From: a virus
Lineage: Duplodnaviria; Caudoviricetes
IMG/VR virus record: IMGVR_UViG_3300045885_000606
Span: 1-55,792 of that record
Length of the DNA: 55,792 bases
Strand: one strand, 5' to 3'
The stretch's first letter is position 1, and every line of letters begins with the position of its first letter. The notes under the pieces were generated by a model. The model worked only from the letters and a program-made list of their open reading frames with translations, was not told the DNA's origin and made no database searches. Of the stretch, positions 18,345 through 49,294 are shown piece by piece. A program made the translations under genes and the position numbers.

Positions 18345-19409
18345 ATGGAAACGACCCTGGAAACGACTGACACCCGGAAGCGTGTCAGCACCCTGACGCC
18401 CTTTGAAACCACCCTGATGCATAGTCGGGAGAGTCTCCGCACCATCTTTGATGATCGCAACAAAGCCGATGCGCTCCTGGTAGAGATCGTCAACTGTGCC
18501 AGGAAGACGCCGGCGCTGATGCGCTGCACGCCAGAAAGCATCATCCACGCGGTCGTCCGCCTGGCCTCGCTGGACCTCAACCCGGCCATCCCGGCTGAAG
18601 CGTACCTCGTCCCCTACGGCACCGAGTGTACCCTTATCTACGGGTACGGTGGACTCCGGAAGCTGGTCCTGCGCTCGCCAGATGTGGTCGATGTCTTTGC
18701 CGAGACGGTGCACCAAAACGACGTCTTCCGGCAGGCAGAAACCCCGATCGTGCTGCCCTACCACCAGCTTCCACCGCCGCAAAACGATGGCACGTTTACC
18801 CCCAGGGGCCGTGCCGTGGGCTATTACGCTGCAGCCCTCCTGCGCTCGGGGAACTGGCGCGTCGTGGTGCTCTCCAAAGCGGAAGTCGATGGCCACAGAC
18901 AGCGCTACTCTGCAGCAGCACAGGGGAAATTCTGGGCCGATAACCGCCCTGACCTGGAAGGTCTCACCAACTTTGACAAGATGGCGATGAAGACCTGCCT
19001 GAGAGAGTTGTGCTCCCCACGGAAGCTCTCCATCTCGGCGGAAATTACCCAGGCCCTGGAAGGTGAAGAAGCCATCCTGAGACAGCCGGCCGCGGTGCAC
19101 CAGGGCTACGACCGGGAGACTGGCACCCGCACCCCGCCGCCCTTGAGTGCCCCCAGTGAGGACCTCCTGGCCGATCTGGTCTCCGACCTCGCCGGCGACC
19201 ATGCTACCCTCGAGTCGCACCTTGAGGAGGAGCGCCAGACCCCTGCGCCTCAGCGAGCTCAGAGAGCTGCGAAAGCCAGGGTGGCCCCCAGCGCTCCTTC
19301 GGCGACACCCCCAGCCCCCCCACAGAGGGCAGGGGGTGAGCCGCCCCTGCCGTTTGATCCCTCCGAATCCGCCCGGATGGATGAGGAACTGGCCTCCCAG
19401 AACGCCTGA
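18345..19409 (+). CDS. recT: RecT-family single-strand annealing protein
   Basis: LMRCTPESI...LNP...EAYLVPY...LIYGYGGL...FDKMAMKT. Confidence 0.88.
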   Translation: METTLETTDTRKRVSTLTPFETTLMHSRESLRTIFDDRNKADALLVEIVNCARKTPALMRCTPESIIHAVVRLASLDLNPAIPAEAYLVPYGTECTLIYGYGGLRKLVLRSPDVVDVFAETVHQNDVFRQAETPIVLPYHQLPPPQNDGTFTPRGRAVGYYAAALLRSGNWRVVVLSKAEVDGHRQRYSAAAQGKFWADNRPDLEGLTNFDKMAMKTCLRELCSPRKLSISAEITQALEGEEAILRQPAAVHQGYDRETGTRTPPPLSAPSEDLLADLVSDLAGDHATLESHLEEERQTPAPQRAQRAAKARVAPSAPSATPPAPPQRAGGEPPLPFDPSESARMDEELASQNA

Positions 19410-19490
19410 GTCTGGCAGTGACCGTGGGGCCACGCCTGTGCGGTCACTTCCTCCTTGCAAGAGAGGTGTGCTTATGTTACACAGAGAGAC

Positions 19491-19972
19491 AGAACAGCCG
19501 TTACAAGTGATTGCAACGTGTGAATCGAGCGCAGCCCCTTACCCAGAGGATCCCGGCAATGGCGAGCGCAGCCGGCTATCCAGAGGACCCCGAAGCACAG
19601 GAGCGCAGCCGTGTCATGGAGGACCACGGACAAGAGAGCGCAGCCGTTTGAAGGGAGGATCCCGCGGGAAATGAGCGCAGCCGCAAAGGGAGAGACCCCC
19701 GGAATCCTGGAGCGCAGCCGCTGAGAAGACAATCCCGACGTACCGAGCGCAGCCGGGATATACGAGGACCACGAAAGAGGATAGCGCAGCCGCAATGGTA
19801 GAGAAACCCCAATAGATACGAGCGCAGCCGAATGACAAGAGTATCCCGAGAGGAGAGGAGCGGAGCCGAAAGCCCCGAGAACCCCGATGTGACGGAGCGG
19901 AGCCGTATCGAATGAGCATCCCGTGAAAAGAGCGCAGCCGCTGGACGCGAGAATCCCGCTGTCCATGAGCGC
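19491..19972 (+). repeat. TIGR-like dual-repeat guide RNA array 1 (~13 units of ~37 nt)
   Basis: Edge repeat GAGCG(C/G)AGCC alternates with loop repeat GAGNAYC(C/A)C, separated by unique 7-10 nt (mostly 9 nt) spacers. Example: gagcgcagcc-gtttgaagg-gaggatccc-gcgggaaat. The first unit is degenerate. Confidence 0.9.
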
Positions 19973-19988
19973 CCAGAAGGAGCATCCT

Positions 19989-22130
19989 ATGCCCGTCCCA
20001 GACATTGCCCTGGTTCCCGAGGAGTACATCGACTTTGATCTGACCTTACGCCTGGATCGTGATCTCGCCATCGCGGCCGGGAACTTGACCCCCCTCCAGC
20101 AGCGCTTCCTGGTGGATATGTACTACCAGGTGCAGGAGTCACGCAAGTCTGCCGCCAACCAGCTCCGCTCTGCCAGGGAAGAACCCAACGCCTTTATCAC
20201 CATGCTGGCGGCGTATCTCATGAAGTTAGAGCGCACAATCGTCAGCGCCCTCAACAAGGCCACCGACCAGCGCCCGGTGACGGCGTGGGCGAAGCGGCAG
20301 CACGGGATTGGCCCCGTACTCACGGCGGGCTTTGCGGCGCACATCGACATCCATATCGCCAAAACGCCTAGTGCTATATGGCGCTATGCGGGACTCGACC
20401 CAACCGTCAAGTGGGCCAAGGGGCAAAAAAGACCATGGAATGCGGCCTTGAAGGTCTTGTCGTGGAAATTGGGTGATTGCTTCTGTCTTAAGCCTGATCA
20501 AACCGTAACAACCAGGCGTGGCTATATCCCCATCTGTGAGGTCGTTAGGGGAGATGAAGTTCTTACGCACCATGGGCGCTGGCAGCGAGTAACGGACGTT
20601 CTCGTGCGCGACTATGCTGGCCCACTCGTCCAACTACGGGCGTTTGGACGAGCAAATCAAGGGCCATGGGTGACGTATGGACATCCTGTCTATACCCGTC
20701 AGCGTCCAGTCATCTACTACAGCGAGGGAGAGAGGCAGCGCTGGAAACATGGAGGAAGAGTCCAAGAGCAGCGCTTTGTTCGCGCCGCACAGATGCGTGC
20801 ATTGTACGAAGAAGGCTTGTTACTGAAAGAGATTGCTACTCGCTTTGGCGTCAGCGAAGCCACAGTGTCACGAAACGTACGGTATCTCAATAATGCCTAC
20901 TCTTCTATGCCTGTAGGGTGGATCGACGCCGAAGACATCCAGCGTGGATGGGATATTTATAGCCCGACTATCCCTGCGACGGCGGCCCGTCTCATGCTAG
21001 ACTTCCGCAGTCTTCCCGACTTGCTCCCAGTAGGAGACCACCAGGTGCGCGCACGAGGGAATCGTGCTATTCCTGTTCCAGCCACGGTCGCTGTCACAGA
21101 GCAAGTTGCTCGTCTCATTGGTCTCTATCTGGCAGAAGGGCATGCGGCGTCACATCAGGGACAACTTGGCTGGTCATTCCATCTCAACGAGCGGAGGTAT
21201 CAGGAGGAGGTCAGACAGACTATCGCTGAGGTTTTTGGACTTAACAGCAGTCTCTATGAGTATGTCGCTGGTCACTCTGCCCAGGTCATCGTGGCTTCAA
21301 AGCCACTCGTTATGCTGTTTGCCCACCTCTTTGGCTCGCATGCTCACACCAAACACCTGCCACCCTCCTGGCTCGAAACACTTGGAGACGCTGAGGCCCG
21401 AGCGCTTCTTCGTGGGCTCTATGATGGCGATGGGCATGATTATCACGGCGACAAACCTGGAGAAGTCCTTACAACGGTCTCGAAGACTCTCGCCTATCAG
21501 GTGCATGATCTCGTGAGGCGTCTTGGCATGCTTGCGTCTATCAATGTGGACAAGGAGGTCTATAAAGTCCGCATACAAGGACGAGAGATTACCGCTGAAT
21601 GGACGCCTACCGGCACCTGGCATAGCGTGAAGTCCATCCCAGAAACCTTCTATGCCGGCCCAGTCTACAATCTCGAAGTGGCTAACGACGAAAGTTATGT
21701 CGCAGAAGGGATTGCTGTCCATAACTGTAAGTTCCACAACCACGAGAAGTGCTTTTACGGGCACATCTATGCCGAGCGCAAGCAACTCGAAGTGATGCGC
21801 AACGCCCGGGGAGATTTTGCCGCGTTGGCGAAAGAGACGCTCGAAGTCCGCAAGATCCAGGATAAAGAGACCCGCCTGGTCTACGAGTCCGGGAAGCTCC
21901 CGGCCGGGCGCCTGGAGCTGCGGGCCCGCCGTGTGGCCGTAAAGCTCTTTCTCGCCCACTGGTTCGAGGTCGACTTTACGCATACCTTTGGCGTGCGCCC
22001 GGAGCTGTCGTATATTCTGATGCACGATCCAGAGACGCATACCCACTACATCCCACCGCCCCTGTGGGATCCGCCCGTAGACGTGAAGGCGCCAGCACCT
22101 AAAGCCGAAGACAGTGAGCATCCCGCGTAA
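19989..22130 (+). CDS. tasA: TIGR-associated (TasA-like) IS110/Nop-domain protein, interrupted by an intein
   Basis: ATG 19989 after AGAAGGAG. Coiled coil LVDMYYQVQESRKSAANQLR; GIGPVLTAGFAAHIDI...PSAIWRYAGLDP (IS110 Transposase_20/Nop-like); C-extein FYGHIYAERK...RARRVAVKLFLAHW. About 299 aa spliced, no RuvC or HNH seen, flanked by dual-repeat arrays. Confidence 0.82.
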   Translation: MPVPDIALVPEEYIDFDLTLRLDRDLAIAAGNLTPLQQRFLVDMYYQVQESRKSAANQLRSAREEPNAFITMLAAYLMKLERTIVSALNKATDQRPVTAWAKRQHGIGPVLTAGFAAHIDIHIAKTPSAIWRYAGLDPTVKWAKGQKRPWNAALKVLSWKLGDCFCLKPDQTVTTRRGYIPICEVVRGDEVLTHHGRWQRVTDVLVRDYAGPLVQLRAFGRANQGPWVTYGHPVYTRQRPVIYYSEGERQRWKHGGRVQEQRFVRAAQMRALYEEGLLLKEIATRFGVSEATVSRNVRYLNNAYSSMPVGWIDAEDIQRGWDIYSPTIPATAARLMLDFRSLPDLLPVGDHQVRARGNRAIPVPATVAVTEQVARLIGLYLAEGHAASHQGQLGWSFHLNERRYQEEVRQTIAEVFGLNSSLYEYVAGHSAQVIVASKPLVMLFAHLFGSHAHTKHLPPSWLETLGDAEARALLRGLYDGDGHDYHGDKPGEVLTTVSKTLAYQVHDLVRRLGMLASINVDKEVYKVRIQGREITAEWTPTGTWHSVKSIPETFYAGPVYNLEVANDESYVAEGIAVHNCKFHNHEKCFYGHIYAERKQLEVMRNARGDFAALAKETLEVRKIQDKETRLVYESGKLPAGRLELRARRVAVKLFLAHWFEVDFTHTFGVRPELSYILMHDPETHTHYIPPPLWDPPVDVKAPAPKAEDSEHPA
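20484..21725 (+). mobile_element. Intein (414 aa) with HTH insertion and LAGLIDADG homing endonuclease
   Basis: Begins CLKPDQTVTT, block B VTYGHPVY, ends VYNLEVANDESYVAEGIAVHN|C. LAGLIDADG blocks LIGLYLAEGH and LLRGLYDGDG; HTH LKEIATRFGVSEATVSR. Confidence 0.93.
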
Positions 22131-22472
22131 AGAGAGCGCAGCCGTCATCGCTGATCAACACGTCAAAAGTGAGCGTAGCCGAGTCTGGTGAGCATCACGT
22201 AAAACATGAGCGGAGCCGTATAGGAAGATCACCACGTCAAAGGGGAGCGTAGCCGAGAGCCCAGAGAGTCCAGTTAAACCTGAGCGCAGCCGTAGATAAG
22301 AAGAACCCCGAAGCACAGGAGCGCAGCCGCTGTGTGCTGAGAACCCCGCATGAGAGGAGCGTCAGCCGCTCTCCACGAGCATCCCGTTGGAAGAGAGCGC
22401 AGCCGAAATAGACGAGTATCCCAAAGAGATCGAGCGCAGCCGTCAGGCTGGAGCACCCCGTAACGCCGAAGC
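22101..22472 (+). repeat. TIGR-like dual-repeat guide RNA array 2 (~10 units)
   Basis: Same edge/loop repeats and ~37 nt period. Example: gagcgtagcc-gagtctggt-gagcatcac-gtaaaacat. The first unit overlaps the last codons of the tas gene. Confidence 0.9.
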
Positions 22473-22486
22473 GACGAGGGCACCAG

Positions 22487-22510
22487 GGCGTCACCCTCGA
22501 AGGTGACGCC
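22487..22510. terminator. Hairpin closing the TIGR locus, between convergent units
   Basis: GGCGTCACC-ctcgaa-GGTGACGCC perfect 9 bp stem; no U tract. Confidence 0.5.
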
Positions 22511-22540
22511 GGTCCCACGTCCTGGCAGTGTGCCCTTGAC

Positions 22541-22984
22541 TTAGAGCCTGCCAGACTTTGCAGGAGAGATGCCCCCATGGCGTCCTGCCGGCACGCGCCC
22601 TCCCCTGAGCGCCTGATGCCCTGGCAGAGGGAGACTGAGGTTCGTGAGCGGGCCCCGCGCTTGCACGTCATTAGCAAGCTGCCTGAGGCCTGCGGCCATA
22701 CTCAGGGCTTGAGCCTCAGAGCAGGGCTGTCCCAGGGGCATTCCCTCCTCGGAGCCAAGATAGACAATAATTTCCACACTGACACCCAAAAGGGAGGCAA
22801 GCGTCAGGGCCTTGCCCAGTGAGGGGGAGTTTTCCCCAGACTCAATTTTGGCAATGTTCGTGTGGTCCGCATATCCCGCGGCCAGACCAAGCGGCCGCTG
22901 CGAGAGACCGTGTAATTCCCGCAGACGCTTGAGACCGCGACCAAAATTCTGCCGGATCACGTCGTCTGCATAGAGGGCTAACAT
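22541..22984 (-). CDS. XRE-family HTH repressor (CI-like)
   Basis: FGRGLKRLRELHGLSQRPL...IAKIESGENSPSL. Confidence 0.85.
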   Translation of the reverse strand: MLALYADDVIRQNFGRGLKRLRELHGLSQRPLGLAAGYADHTNIAKIESGENSPSLGKALTLASLLGVSVEIIVYLGSEEGMPLGQPCSEAQALSMAAGLRQLANDVQARGPLTNLSLPLPGHQALRGGRVPAGRHGGISPAKSGRL

Positions 22985-23149
22985 ACCGCATCTCCTTCGT
23001 CAAAGACCATAGGCCCGCACCGATGTGCTATCACCACACATTTTATCGAAGACGCCTGGCAAGTGAAAGCAAAAACTTGTGCTTGATCCACACACCCATG
23101 TGCGCTATGTTATGGGTACAAAATCATCGCACAGGGAGAGGACAGGGCA

Positions 23150-23392
23150 ATGCGGTTGGGGCTGAAAAAGGCCCGTGCCGAGCGAGGACTCACGCAGCAG
23201 GAGCTGGTGTGCGCCTTAAAGGCACGAGCGCCGCATATCAAACTGGTACGCGCCACCATTTCCAAGTACGAGCATGGCGTCTACGATATTCCCGGACGCA
23301 CGCTTGAACTCCTGGCGCAAGTTCTCGATACGCCTATGGATATTCTCTATACCACGACGCCCGGCCTTGGGCGGCAACCCCCCAGGATATGA
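23150..23392 (+). CDS. XRE-family HTH regulator (Cro-like)
   Basis: LKKARAERGLTQQEL...TISKYEHG; divergent from the repressor. Confidence 0.85.
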   Translation: MRLGLKKARAERGLTQQELVCALKARAPHIKLVRATISKYEHGVYDIPGRTLELLAQVLDTPMDILYTTTPGLGRQPPRI

Positions 23393-47997: not shown

Positions 47998-49294
47998 TTA
48001 TGCGTTATTGATGCCGTACACCCGCTGATGGTGTCTCAGCGACAAGAACTGGAGCTGCCAGAGCAGATAAATCCTTGATATAGCTACAAACTGGTATGTG
48101 GGCTGAATGAACGGATCTATTCTGAAGTGCATATTGGGGTGGAATATAGGCCTAATATACTTCTCTGTGTAGAATTGCATCTCCCCAGCCGGAACGAACT
48201 GATCATGGAGAACTACAGCGCGGTTGAACATCAGGTTGCGGAAGCCGCCGCGGGTGGTTTCCTCGTCTTCGATGAAGCGCTGGTTATTGACCAGGGTGCC
48301 CCAGTAGGCGTTCCAGCCCGCTTGCGTGGTGGTAATGAGCGTCGGCTCTTCGTTGCCGAATGAGCAGCGCCCGTATTCCTGCTGCATGCCGGCGGTCGTG
48401 ACCAGAGACGCACCAGCCGATTGCCAGATGGTATCGGCATCGGCATCGGTGGGCCCATTGCCGCCGCCACAGCGCCACACAAAGCCCGTCGAGGCGTTGT
48501 TCTGGATGGTGATCCCGGCATAGGTGCCTGAGGCGGCCAGCGCCAGGGGCACGCCGTCGACGTCGATGGCGGTATTTTGCGGCGCGGTCCGCTGAATGGC
48601 GCGGTTGAGCTTCATGAGCATCGAGCCAAAGGAGATTTCTTCTTTGACCCGGACCAGGTTGACCACGCCGGGAGGCCCCTGGTTCAAGACCGCGTCGATC
48701 ACGGGAATGGCGATCAATTGTTGGTACGCACGCCCATAAGTTCTGTTATCCCTAAGGCTCTTTATCCTTAGGTTCTGCATATTACTATGCAGCTCCGACT
48801 ATCTCTTCACCCATACGTCAGGGTGCCCGGCACTCGTGGAGGGCTTATTCTTTCGTCACCCTCTAGTCTGTACGCCTTCCGTCCCCCTGGGCCTCACGGC
48901 TTACATGGACGGCTTGGCTCGGGATTGTCCCCAGCATGACCTGGTAGGAGTTTCCCCGAATTCACCGGGTTTCACATGCCAGGTTTCCCTGGCAAGGCAG
49001 CAGCGGTGTTTACTGCAACTCTGCCGGTTGAGCACTGTCTGTCACGTCAGTGCTCAACATCTGCGTACCCCAAAAAGCCCCACCAGTTAGTTCTTCTTGA
49101 TTTACTACTGTCCAGACAATTGCCCCACCATGAAAACGCCGACCCAGACGCGTCAACCTCCATAACAGCGGTGAAGGGCGGAACACCGCGTCGACCAGTT
49201 GTGGCTGAAAGTACTTAGTGGTAACACCGTTAGCCGTATTGACAAGTGTAATAGGCGGTTGTGATAGCTGGCTACCTATACCCCCTGCTGCCAT
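47998..49294 (-). CDS. Major capsid protein, two exons: 49294-49012 and 48734-47998 (339 aa spliced)
   Basis: Joining gives ...SAQPAELQ-W-RAYQQLIAIPVIDAVLNQG... in frame (1020 nt). Contains LVDAVFRPSPLL and GGFRNLMFN; follows the scaffold-like gene. Confidence 0.85.
48735..49011 (-). ncRNA. Group I self-splicing intron (277 nt, no ORF)
   Basis: On the minus strand the 5' exon ends in U, paired in P1 (GCAGU/GCUGC with U.G). P/Q GAAUUCGGGGAAA...AAUCCCGAGCCAAGC, R GUACAGACUAGA, S GAAGAGAUAGUCGG, terminal G. Confidence 0.92.

Follow-up and report, generated by a model that had tools for sequence, protein, structure and literature searches.

TIGR-Tas systems (TIGR, tandem interspaced guide RNA) are already known: they were published in 2025, structures have been solved, and a curated NCBI model is available for a family with thousands of known loci. 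The nuclease-free architecture termed TasA was defined by Faure et al. 2025 (PMC12045711), and a 2026 preprint (10.64898/2026.09.09.750476) describes TasA as an RNA-guided transcriptional repressor. Here, we analyze a further member of this family, which is located on a single contig of 55,792 nucleotides (nt; IMG/VR record IMGVR_UViG_3300045885_000606, in the following referred to as the window) and in which a tasA gene carrying an intein resides between two repeat arrays. The assignment of the locus as a TIGR-TasA system of the dual-repeat type is supported by the gene product and by the arrays. At a probability of roughly 0.87 we consider it to be a phage-borne locus of that type that acts by RNA-guided repression without cleavage, through a mechanism inferred from the family. 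As a TIGR-TasA locus it is ordinary; its one unusual and new feature is the intein in tasA.

Among the described systems, the dual-repeat TIGR-TasA locus of Flavonifractor plautii (FpTasA; PMC12045711) is similar in being phage-borne and in having an array end that consists of a truncated edge repeat and a hairpin. Compared with the description given in that paper, the unit is 37 nt long here instead of 36 nt, the edge repeat contains an extra variable base (C, G or T) in its middle, the repeats end with CCG instead of CCA, and the gene carries an intein. The Nop core of SpTasH (from Salicola phage CGphi29; PDB 21kl, 9w03 and others) and that of TaTasR (9MTY) align with TasA of the window, which has kept the residues equivalent to the Tyr/His processing dyad and to the aromatic-basic unwinding pair. 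In contrast to these two proteins, TasA has no N-terminal HNH or RuvC domain, so that no DNA cleavage would be expected. Nuclease-free repression by Tas proteins, the function proposed here, has been described for MbTasA and for catalytically dead TasR (preprint 10.64898/2026.09.09.750476); according to this description, however, those proteins belong to stem-loop arrays and are without the Y/H loop, whereas the locus in the window is of the dual-repeat type and has kept the loop. More distantly, the RNA-binding core is homologous to those of the IS110/IS621 bridge-RNA recombinases and the archaeal Nop5 box C/D ribonucleoproteins, from which the present system differs by lacking a DEDD domain, a transposon and a methylase partner, and by having its guides in tandem arrays. 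The intein, finally, has the HINT domain, the two-motif LAGLIDADG part and the residues Cys1, TxxH, HN and Cys+1 in common with PI-PkoII (2cw7), TliVMA/PhoVMA (7qsu, 7qst) and PI-SceI (1vde). It differs from them by its Tas host protein and an extra helix-turn-helix (HTH) insert, and from the 17 closest Tas-hosted inteins by a position eight codons away.

Assignment of the gene product to the Tas family

The open reading frame (ORF) of the tasA precursor extends from 19989 to 22130 on the + strand and encodes 713 amino acids (aa) followed by a stop codon. The ATG at 19989 is backed as start codon by the N-terminus of P0001, the closest intein-free relative (284 aa), and by a database gene call of 713 aa (P0121); an identical 713-aa protein has been called on nine contigs in a public protein collection. 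The N-extein (residues 1-165; 19989..20483, +) comprises coiled-coil helices, a GIGP helix-hairpin-helix-like motif at residue 106 and the residue W159. The C-extein (residues 580-713; 21726..22127, +) provides the +1 Cys C580, K581, the rest of the Nop domain and the counterparts of the processing dyad, Y675 and H684. The motif AIWRYAGLDP is also present in the tasA product. Computed removal of the intein yields a product of exactly 299 aa, the size that an earlier note, made from the sequence of the window alone, had given for a spliced protein.

The tasA product is recognized by the NCBIfam model NF052498.1 TIGR_Tas_endo ('TIGR-Tas system RNA-guided endonuclease') with 147.8 bits at a cut-off of 100 (E 4.3e-43), the match falling into two stretches, one on each side of the intein. 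Similarly, sequence comparison with the PDB retrieved TasH (21kl_A, E 2.2e-7, and seven further TasH entries) and TasR (9mty_A, E 5.5e-7), the latter aligning by residues 45-165 and 640-700 with residues 121-244 and 271-327 of the chain. 9MTY is the TasR-tigRNA-DNA structure reported by Faure et al. 2025 (PMC12045711). A profile of 25 intein-free relatives reached 9mty with an E-value of 6.5e-30 and TasH with 2.2e-19, followed by IS621 (5.6e-5) and ISCro4 (4.8e-4). As a proxy for the fold of spliced TasA we used a model of P0001, which is 70% identical to the N-extein and 64% identical to the C-extein. In comparison of this AlphaFold 2 model (predicted local distance difference test, pLDDT, 88.1; predicted template modelling score, pTM, 0.84) with the PDB, the best ten matches were all TasH or TasR chains (E 1.6e-7 to 3.2e-6; target-normalised TM-scores 0.56-0.71), with IS621 and ISCro4 coming next at ranks 12-15. 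The profile and structure comparisons that the earlier note had proposed as a check thus bear out its assignment of the protein to the Tas family.

In SpTasH, the residues Y289 and H296 have been described to process the precursor of the tigRNAs (PMC13421893). These residues align to Y675 and H684 in the window, of which H684 is nearly invariant in the family alignment; the C-terminal loop with this dyad is two residues longer than that of SpTasH. Dual-repeat Tas types have been reported to retain the Y/H loop and stem-loop types to be without it (preprint 10.64898/2026.09.09.750476), and the Y675/H684 loop fits the dual-repeat arrays of the locus.

The aligned core starts at residue 45, a position that corresponds to residue 121 of TasR and about residues 101-120 of TasH, and is thus preceded by 44 residues. 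The corresponding N-terminal regions of TasR and TasH contain their RuvC and HNH domains. Neither of these domains, nor an IS110 DEDD domain, was found in the protein by Pfam or NCBIfam. Without room for a RuvC or HNH domain the protein is of the TasA type, the conclusion that had been drawn in the earlier note. The view, also put forward there, that such a TasA may bind or repress rather than cut agrees with the findings of the 2026 preprint on TasA repression.

These comparisons also bear on the alternative that the gene encodes an RNA-guided transposase of the IS110 family, or a remnant of one, and that the repeats are similar to bridge RNAs. This is suggested by a weak match to Pfam PF02371 Transposase_20 (E 0.016 with the 735-aa ORF that begins with GTG, 0.0029 with the N-extein), by matches of both exteins to the 'transposase' family phrog_4285, and by the reach of the family profile to IS621. 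However, the DEDD/RuvC-like N-terminal domain is missing, only 44 residues preceding the core; the NCBIfam model NF033542 transpos_IS110 gives 16 bits at a cut-off of 140 on the relative P0001, whereas the TIGR-Tas model passes; and 21 tandem guide units represent the TIGR layout, as opposed to a single bridge RNA. We give this alternative hardly any credence. As a side observation, PHROGs assigns both exteins (19989-20483 and 21726-22127) to phrog_4285 under integration and excision, and several public sources call relatives 'Transposase IS116/IS110/IS902 family'. With such labels on exteins and relatives alike, automatic phage annotation mislabels TasA genes.

Anatomy of the TIGR arrays

The TasA protein identified above is encoded between two arrays that abut the ends of its ORF on the same strand. 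The upstream array (19527..19966, +) consists of 12 complete units of 35-38 nt, each composed of an edge repeat GAGCGCAGCC(G), spacer A, a loop repeat GAGNAYCCC(G) and spacer B. Nine further complete units form the downstream array (22134..22468, +), in which the first four loop repeats are deviant and end with CAC or CCA. The edge repeat GAGCGCAGCC recurs in phase, with 12 starts between 19527 and 19930 and nine between 22134 and 22432 at a spacing of 35-38 nt, when at most one substitution or, for the unit at 22357 only, one inserted base is allowed. Elsewhere in the window, matches to the edge repeat with up to two mismatches are single and scattered, none occurring in series. The 21 complete units have a period of 35-38 nt with a mode of 37 and are parsed into an edge repeat of 10-11 nt, a spacer A of 8-10 nt, the 9-nt loop repeat GAGNAYCCC and a spacer B of 7-10 nt. 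Since a G follows 39 of the 42 repeats, the true repeats are GAGCG-N-AGCCG and GAGNAYCCCG, both ending with CCG, and the variable spacers are mostly 8 nt long. Tandem Repeats Finder recovered the arrays only in part because the spacers vary among units.

Fourteen of the 21 edge repeats are identical. The repeats start with GAG (20/21 edge, 17/21 loop) and end, before the G, with CC (21/21 edge, 15/21 loop). Where TIGR repeats are defined by a box D start (UG in TasR arrays) and a box C end (CCA), those of the window mostly have GAG starts and CCG ends. Among the ten-nucleotide edge repeats the sixth base is variable, being C in 15, G in three and T in two of 20, and the 11-nt edge repeat of unit D7 has TC at this position; compared with GAGCGAGCCA, the edge repeat of relatives, the variable sixth base is an extra one.

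Partial units are present at both ends of the gene. A degenerate 13th unit (19967..19988, +), read from the sequence, consists of a truncated edge repeat GAGCGC followed by a loop-like GAGCATCC and overlaps the Shine-Dalgarno-like AAGGAG that precedes the tasA start codon. At the other side, a partial unit (22107..22133, +) with the loop repeat GAGCATCCCG and a spacer is located in the last codons and the stop codon of tasA, and the downstream array thus begins within coding sequence. The array end (22465..22526, +) consists of a truncated edge-like AAGCG (22469) and a strong G+C-rich hairpin and is a candidate transcript end. The hairpin folds with -37.4 kcal/mol (z -4.49), none of 200 shuffles folds as well, and no T-run follows. 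The earlier note had counted about 23 units with a period of about 37 nt and spacers of about 9 nt on both sides of a gene with the GIGP and AIWRYAGLDP motifs. The parse agrees with this layout: 12 units lie upstream and nine downstream, the two partial units and the truncated end bring the count close to 23, and the spacers turn out to be slightly shorter. The dual-repeat, dual-spacer organization is that of TIGR arrays as presented by Faure et al. 2025 (PMC12045711). TIGR units are characterized by two alternating repeats of 8-12 nt, two spacers of about 8-9 nt and a period of about 36 nt, and their arrays directly adjoin tas at one or both ends.

Some units appear to be related to each other. 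The downstream units 1-2 and 3-4 (22134-22294) form a tandem duplication of 74 nt (Tandem Repeats Finder: period 74, 2.2 copies, 75% matches), within which spacer B is identical at 7/9 positions and spacer A has diverged. In addition, an identical spacer B (GAAGCACAG) is present in upstream unit 2 (19564-19600) and downstream unit 5 (22282-22318). Both observations point to duplication with divergence, or to recombination between the arrays, as the source of new units.

Distribution of related loci

At E ≤ 0.001 the family comprises 914 shorter proteins (of 1083 candidates) and 1782 representatives of clusters at 50% identity. On viral contigs 457 loci were confirmed, 80 of which are covered by the comparisons of viral loci presented here; a first scan of the viral contigs with the N-extein as single query had returned no relatives, and they were found by an alignment-based scan. 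A further 33 loci reside in genome contigs, including those of Acidobacteriota (Solibacteraceae, Bryobacterales, Acidobacteriaceae), Alphaproteobacteria and Chloroflexota.

Of the 80 viral loci, 74 have a periodic array with at least four units beside the tasA homologue. The usual unit of these relatives is 36 nt long and composed of GAGCGAGCCA, 8 nt, GAGNGYRCCA and another 8 nt, and the spacers differ in every locus. A minority has periods of 34-38 nt and CCG endings (e.g. L002, L018, L061, L066 and L068); CCG repeat ends are found in few relatives (L061, L066, L068 and L002) and CCA in most. Given this minority, the 37-nt unit and the CCG ends of the window are within the range of the family. 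When seven neighbour proteins from the window (RecT, the cI-like and Cro-like proteins and four ORFs) were compared with 113 related loci, no tblastn match with E ≤ 1e-5 was obtained. As no neighbour gene recurs, the array-tas-array cassette represents a self-contained module in varied surroundings.

The recurrence of the arrays also speaks to the alternative that the repeats belong to a CRISPR array or form a minisatellite without any meaning. Short repeats, regular spacing and variable sequence in between are features that such elements would share. The window, however, has two alternating repeats of 9-11 nt with spacers of about 8 nt, in contrast to the CRISPR repeats of 25-36 nt given in PMC12045711; no Cas family was found among 30 scanned ORFs (selected from 157 ORFs of at least 100 aa, plus one of 80 aa), and no Rfam family covers the arrays. 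The same layout accompanies the homologue in 74 of 80 viral loci with spacers that differ from locus to locus. The probability of a CRISPR array or minisatellite is negligible in our view, and the statement of the earlier note that the locus is not CRISPR stands.

Some relatives (P0123, P0128, P0148, P0152 and P0150) contain non-intein insertions of 60-130 aa between the GLDPT..W and RPWN motifs, roughly where wedge or insertion regions have been described in other Tas clades.

The intein and its position

The insert within the TasA precursor comprises residues 166-579 (414 aa; 20484..21725, +). Its splicing residues are complete, with C166 as Cys1, T229 and H232 of block B (TYGH, 229-232), H578-N579 and the +1 Cys C580, and the acidic residues E383 and D481 of its two LAGLIDADG motifs are present. 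An HTH insert was detected by Pfam HTH_23 and others at precursor residues 267-299 (289-321 on the GTG-start ORF). Pfam LAGLIDADG_3 (PF14528) matched with 49.5 bits at a cut-off of 22.5 and NCBIfam TIGR01443 intein_Cterm with 30.8 bits at a cut-off of 15.6 (residues 558-580), and the Pfam matches to Intein_splicing and Hint_2 were below threshold. PI-PkoII was retrieved from the PDB by sequence (E 1e-7), and in a model of the precursor (pLDDT 83.3) the insert matches PI-PkoII, TliVMA, PhoVMA, PI-SceI and PI-PfuI with E-values of 2.4e-15 to 3.4e-7. The G+C content is 54.3% for the intein, 60.0% for the exteins and 60.3% for the contig, and intein-free homologues are colinear over the junction with no insert. 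By these sequence features the insert is a class 1 LAGLIDADG intein that is predicted to splice, and what the earlier note had only implied by its wording of a spliced protein is borne out by the splicing residues and the LAGLIDADG matches. A start of the intein at S158 was also considered and is disfavoured. It would remove the family-invariant segment W159-F165 from the product, whereas, if the intein begins at C166, the product is colinear with every intein-free relative and the intein aligns with its own relatives from the first residue.

The position of the intein is of particular relevance for the function of TasA. A conserved aromatic-basic pair on helix α4, W203 and K211 in SpTasH, has been described at the DNA-unwinding junction (preprint 10.64898/2026.08.11.744272). 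These residues align to the family-invariant W159 and the nearly invariant K581, and the intein, located between F165 and C580, resides within the eight-residue W159-K581 span of this helix. In the model of P0001, residues 152-167 form a helix with block-mean pLDDT values of 93-97; in that of the precursor, residues 153-164 are non-helical with a pLDDT below 50. As helix α4 is broken in the precursor model, the unspliced precursor would be unable to form the unwinding helix and, judged from the models, should not open target DNA.

The closest relatives of the window intein, 22 rows of which were examined, are almost all located in Tas proteins. In 17 of the 22 rows both junctions correspond to one site, termed site b (...LKxL / C...HN / C(W/F/Y/A)K.G..F...). 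P0305 has the C-junction of site b only, P0303 has a C-junction similar to that of site b with an unrelated N-side, P0304 was not parsable, and P0310 is an intein in a portal protein. The window protein alone carries its intein at site c, eight codons downstream of site b (...LKVLSWKLGDCF / C...HN / CKFHNH...), and a multiple alignment likewise places it there. Over its full length the window intein is 56% identical to that of P0122 (235/416 positions, E 8e-152). In a maximum-likelihood tree of 19 intein segments, built without P0304, P0305 and the mini-intein P0170, these two inteins are sisters with a support of 100/99. The other 15 Tas-flanked inteins in the tree are all at site b; P0303 and the portal intein P0310, a long-branched outlier that sets the midpoint root, complete the 19 rows. 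The sister position of a site-c and a site-b intein implies that the intein has shifted its site, and the sequences are most simply explained if the intein moved from site b to site c in the lineage of the window. The residue at site b, usually Cys, is Ser in the window and Gln or Arg in the closest intein-free relatives, and a native Cys is present at site c in P0002 and P0006.

Inteins were found at further positions in the family, before GIGP in P0127 and P0129, and in the C-terminal helix between VKRF. and SHYW in P0157. These are apparently unrelated to the inteins at sites b and c. Together with the latter two sites, inteins of the Tas family occupy four or more sites, all in conserved motifs. 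The endonuclease part is reduced or lost in P0170 and in the shorter inteins of P0301, P0306 and P0308. Inteins are rare in the Tas family: from 150 listed representatives, five sequences were examined and four of them bear inteins (P0122, P0157, P0170 and P0204), and none of the 65 parsable loci among the 80 viral ones has an insertion after the RPWN motif. The word 'intein' is absent from the main texts (supplementary tables and TIGRSafari not included) of PMC12045711 and the preprints 10.64898/2026.09.09.750476 and 10.64898/2026.08.11.744272, and a text search of the literature for 'intein' together with 'tigRNA' or 'TIGR-Tas' returned general reviews only, as judged from their listing.

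An intein in such a place might also mean that the locus is decaying, i.e., that the insertion or a loss of splicing has inactivated tasA and that the arrays are relics which no longer guide. The interruption of a functionally central helix would be in line with this, as would the deviant loop repeats of the first four downstream units, the inserted base in one edge repeat and the result of the target search given below, in which no guide target was found. On the other hand, the frame of 713 codons is intact, the canonical splicing residues are all present, the exteins still share 64-70% identity with an intein-free relative, to which they align without a gap at the junction, the identical protein occurs on nine contigs, and 14 of 21 edge repeats have remained identical. 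We regard decay as improbable and a functional TIGR-TasA locus as the better reading. For such a locus, it might be speculated that the intein serves as a post-translational gate: the precursor may load guides and stay inert until it splices, at a time set by redox conditions or stress, and the locus would in addition offer a tractable case of an intein that shifts its site. As both nucleophiles are Cys, splicing could respond to redox or stress and thereby time TasA repression in infection or lysogeny. We put this forward as a doubtful proposal, with the odds clearly against it.

Guide targets, expression and proposed mechanism

Targets of the 21 spacer pairs were searched as spacer A followed by the reverse complement of spacer B, or the reverse complement of A followed by B, with gaps of 0-2 nt. 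For the phage's own genome the arrays were masked and the expectation was derived from 105 mismatched pairings scaled to 21. The earlier note had proposed a search for spacer A beside the reverse complement of B, and here nothing above decoys was obtained: the own 55.8 kb contain no match with 0-1 mismatch and five with two mismatches at an expectation of 7.2, and 113 related loci (733,767 nt) contain no perfect match and four with one mismatch, which is decoy level. The lack of matches above decoys indicates that the targets are probably located in other replicons.

This result counts against the reading of the locus as an active, RNA-guided repressor, and so do several further points. A scan of 19410-19527, between RecT and the array, gave no sigma-70-like promoter, a null result of little weight. 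Six of the 21 loop repeats are without the CC end, and the repeat ends are CCG as opposed to the CCA of box C. In PlTasA, the adenine of box C has been described to make stacking contacts (preprint 10.64898/2026.08.11.744272), so that recognition of the repeats may differ here. Support from RNA is weak. In three soil metatranscriptome libraries, assembled contigs represent parts of the upstream array, of tasA and of the intein and reach into the beginning of the downstream array; adjacent genes are represented as well, however, and carry-over of DNA is possible. Among these contigs, one of X20 (20431-20581) spans the junction between N-extein and intein and another (22052-22219) spans the end of tasA and the first downstream units. 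No joints were reported in the RNA-library contigs, and nothing therefore suggests a removal of the insert at the RNA level. Parts left uncovered in X19-X21 (e.g. 22233-22574) provide no evidence because contigs only were available.

A further alternative is self-regulation, in which TasA and its guides would control the phage's own genome, for example its lysogeny or late genes. The locus adjoins a divergent HTH_3 pair (22541-23392), and TasA proteins can repress transcription (preprint 10.64898/2026.09.09.750476). Against this stand the own-genome search, which gave no match above decoys and none with 0-1 mismatch in either geometry at gaps of 0-2 nt, and the finding that none of the seven neighbour genes is common to the 113 related loci, so that the cassette moves independently of its surroundings. 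Self-regulation is very improbable in our assessment.

For repression directed elsewhere by a phage-borne TIGR-TasA locus, a mechanism can be proposed on the basis of Faure et al. 2025 (PMC12045711) and the 2026 preprint on TasA repression, as far as these sources describe it. Transcription, splicing, RNA processing, dimerisation, DNA binding and repression are all steps that we infer for the window by analogy. Both arrays and tasA would be transcribed on the + strand. The 713-aa precursor would excise the 414-aa intein to give the 299-aa TasA, which may dimerise by its N-terminal coiled coil and bind the repeats by its Nop domain. The Tyr/His dyad (Y675, H684) would then cut the precursor RNA within each edge repeat, yielding tigRNAs of about 37 nt. 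With its two spacers of about 8 nt, each tigRNA would pair with neighbouring DNA segments, one on either strand. In this way the nuclease-free complex might block transcription or replication of its target, i.e., a competing mobile element or a host gene.

Phage and genomic neighbourhood

The ORFs of the window include those for a large terminase, a portal protein, a tail fibre protein and a RecT-like protein; a major head protein is encoded as well. Adjoining the TIGR-TasA cassette is the divergent, cI/Cro-like HTH_3 pair (22541-22984, -, and 23150-23392, +). Based on these genes the contig is that of a phage, which is probably temperate. No integrase was identified among the window ORFs scanned. 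The array-tasA-array cassette on the + strand is flanked by RecT (18345-19409) and by the cI-like gene (22541-22984, -), with which it is convergent; a site beside a cI/Cro-like pair is a typical spot for genes expressed by prophages. No ParB-like domain (tasParB) was found by Pfam in 20 window ORFs, of which three of ten and another three of ten gave any family match. All sequencing runs that contain the locus are labelled as soil metagenome, and a blastn comparison of 19400-22600 with 50,697 phage records gave no match.

An imperfect inverted repeat (CGTTACAAGTGATTGCAACG) at 19499-19518, 9 nt upstream of the first edge repeat, was listed in the scan only as a terminator-like site of the minus strand; it could be an operator or a processing signal. 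In the DNA run X14, which contains 96% of the sampled words, contigs have loose ends at 19176 and 22422, and a separate contig of 1559 nt from this run matches 22422-22448 only. These contigs hint that a relative which differs in its flanks or its array co-occurs.

In the structural module of the phage, a group I catalytic intron is located at 48775-49060 (-; Rfam RF00028, 65.5 bits at a gathering score of 50, E 2e-14, full-length model). Downstream of it, an ORF at 47998-48780 (-) has a match to major head protein families (phrog_9953, E 7e-10) over their C-terminal two-thirds, and an ORF that begins at about 49293 stops at about 49011, within the Rfam match to the intron. The major capsid gene is therefore probably split by the group I intron. 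Together with the intein, two kinds of self-splicing element are thus present in one phage.

Implications

The locus illustrates the variation in guide architecture that is tolerated in the family, i.e., a unit of 37 nt, an edge repeat enlarged by a variable central base, and repeats that end with CCG where box C has CCA. This bears on rules for guide design and on array finders that rely on motifs. If the precursor is inactive, natural Tas proteins that contain inteins would be ready-made splice-dependent switches at a functionally critical helix. Two sister inteins at sites eight codons apart would further allow a direct test of how homing endonuclease and splicing domain adapt to a new site.

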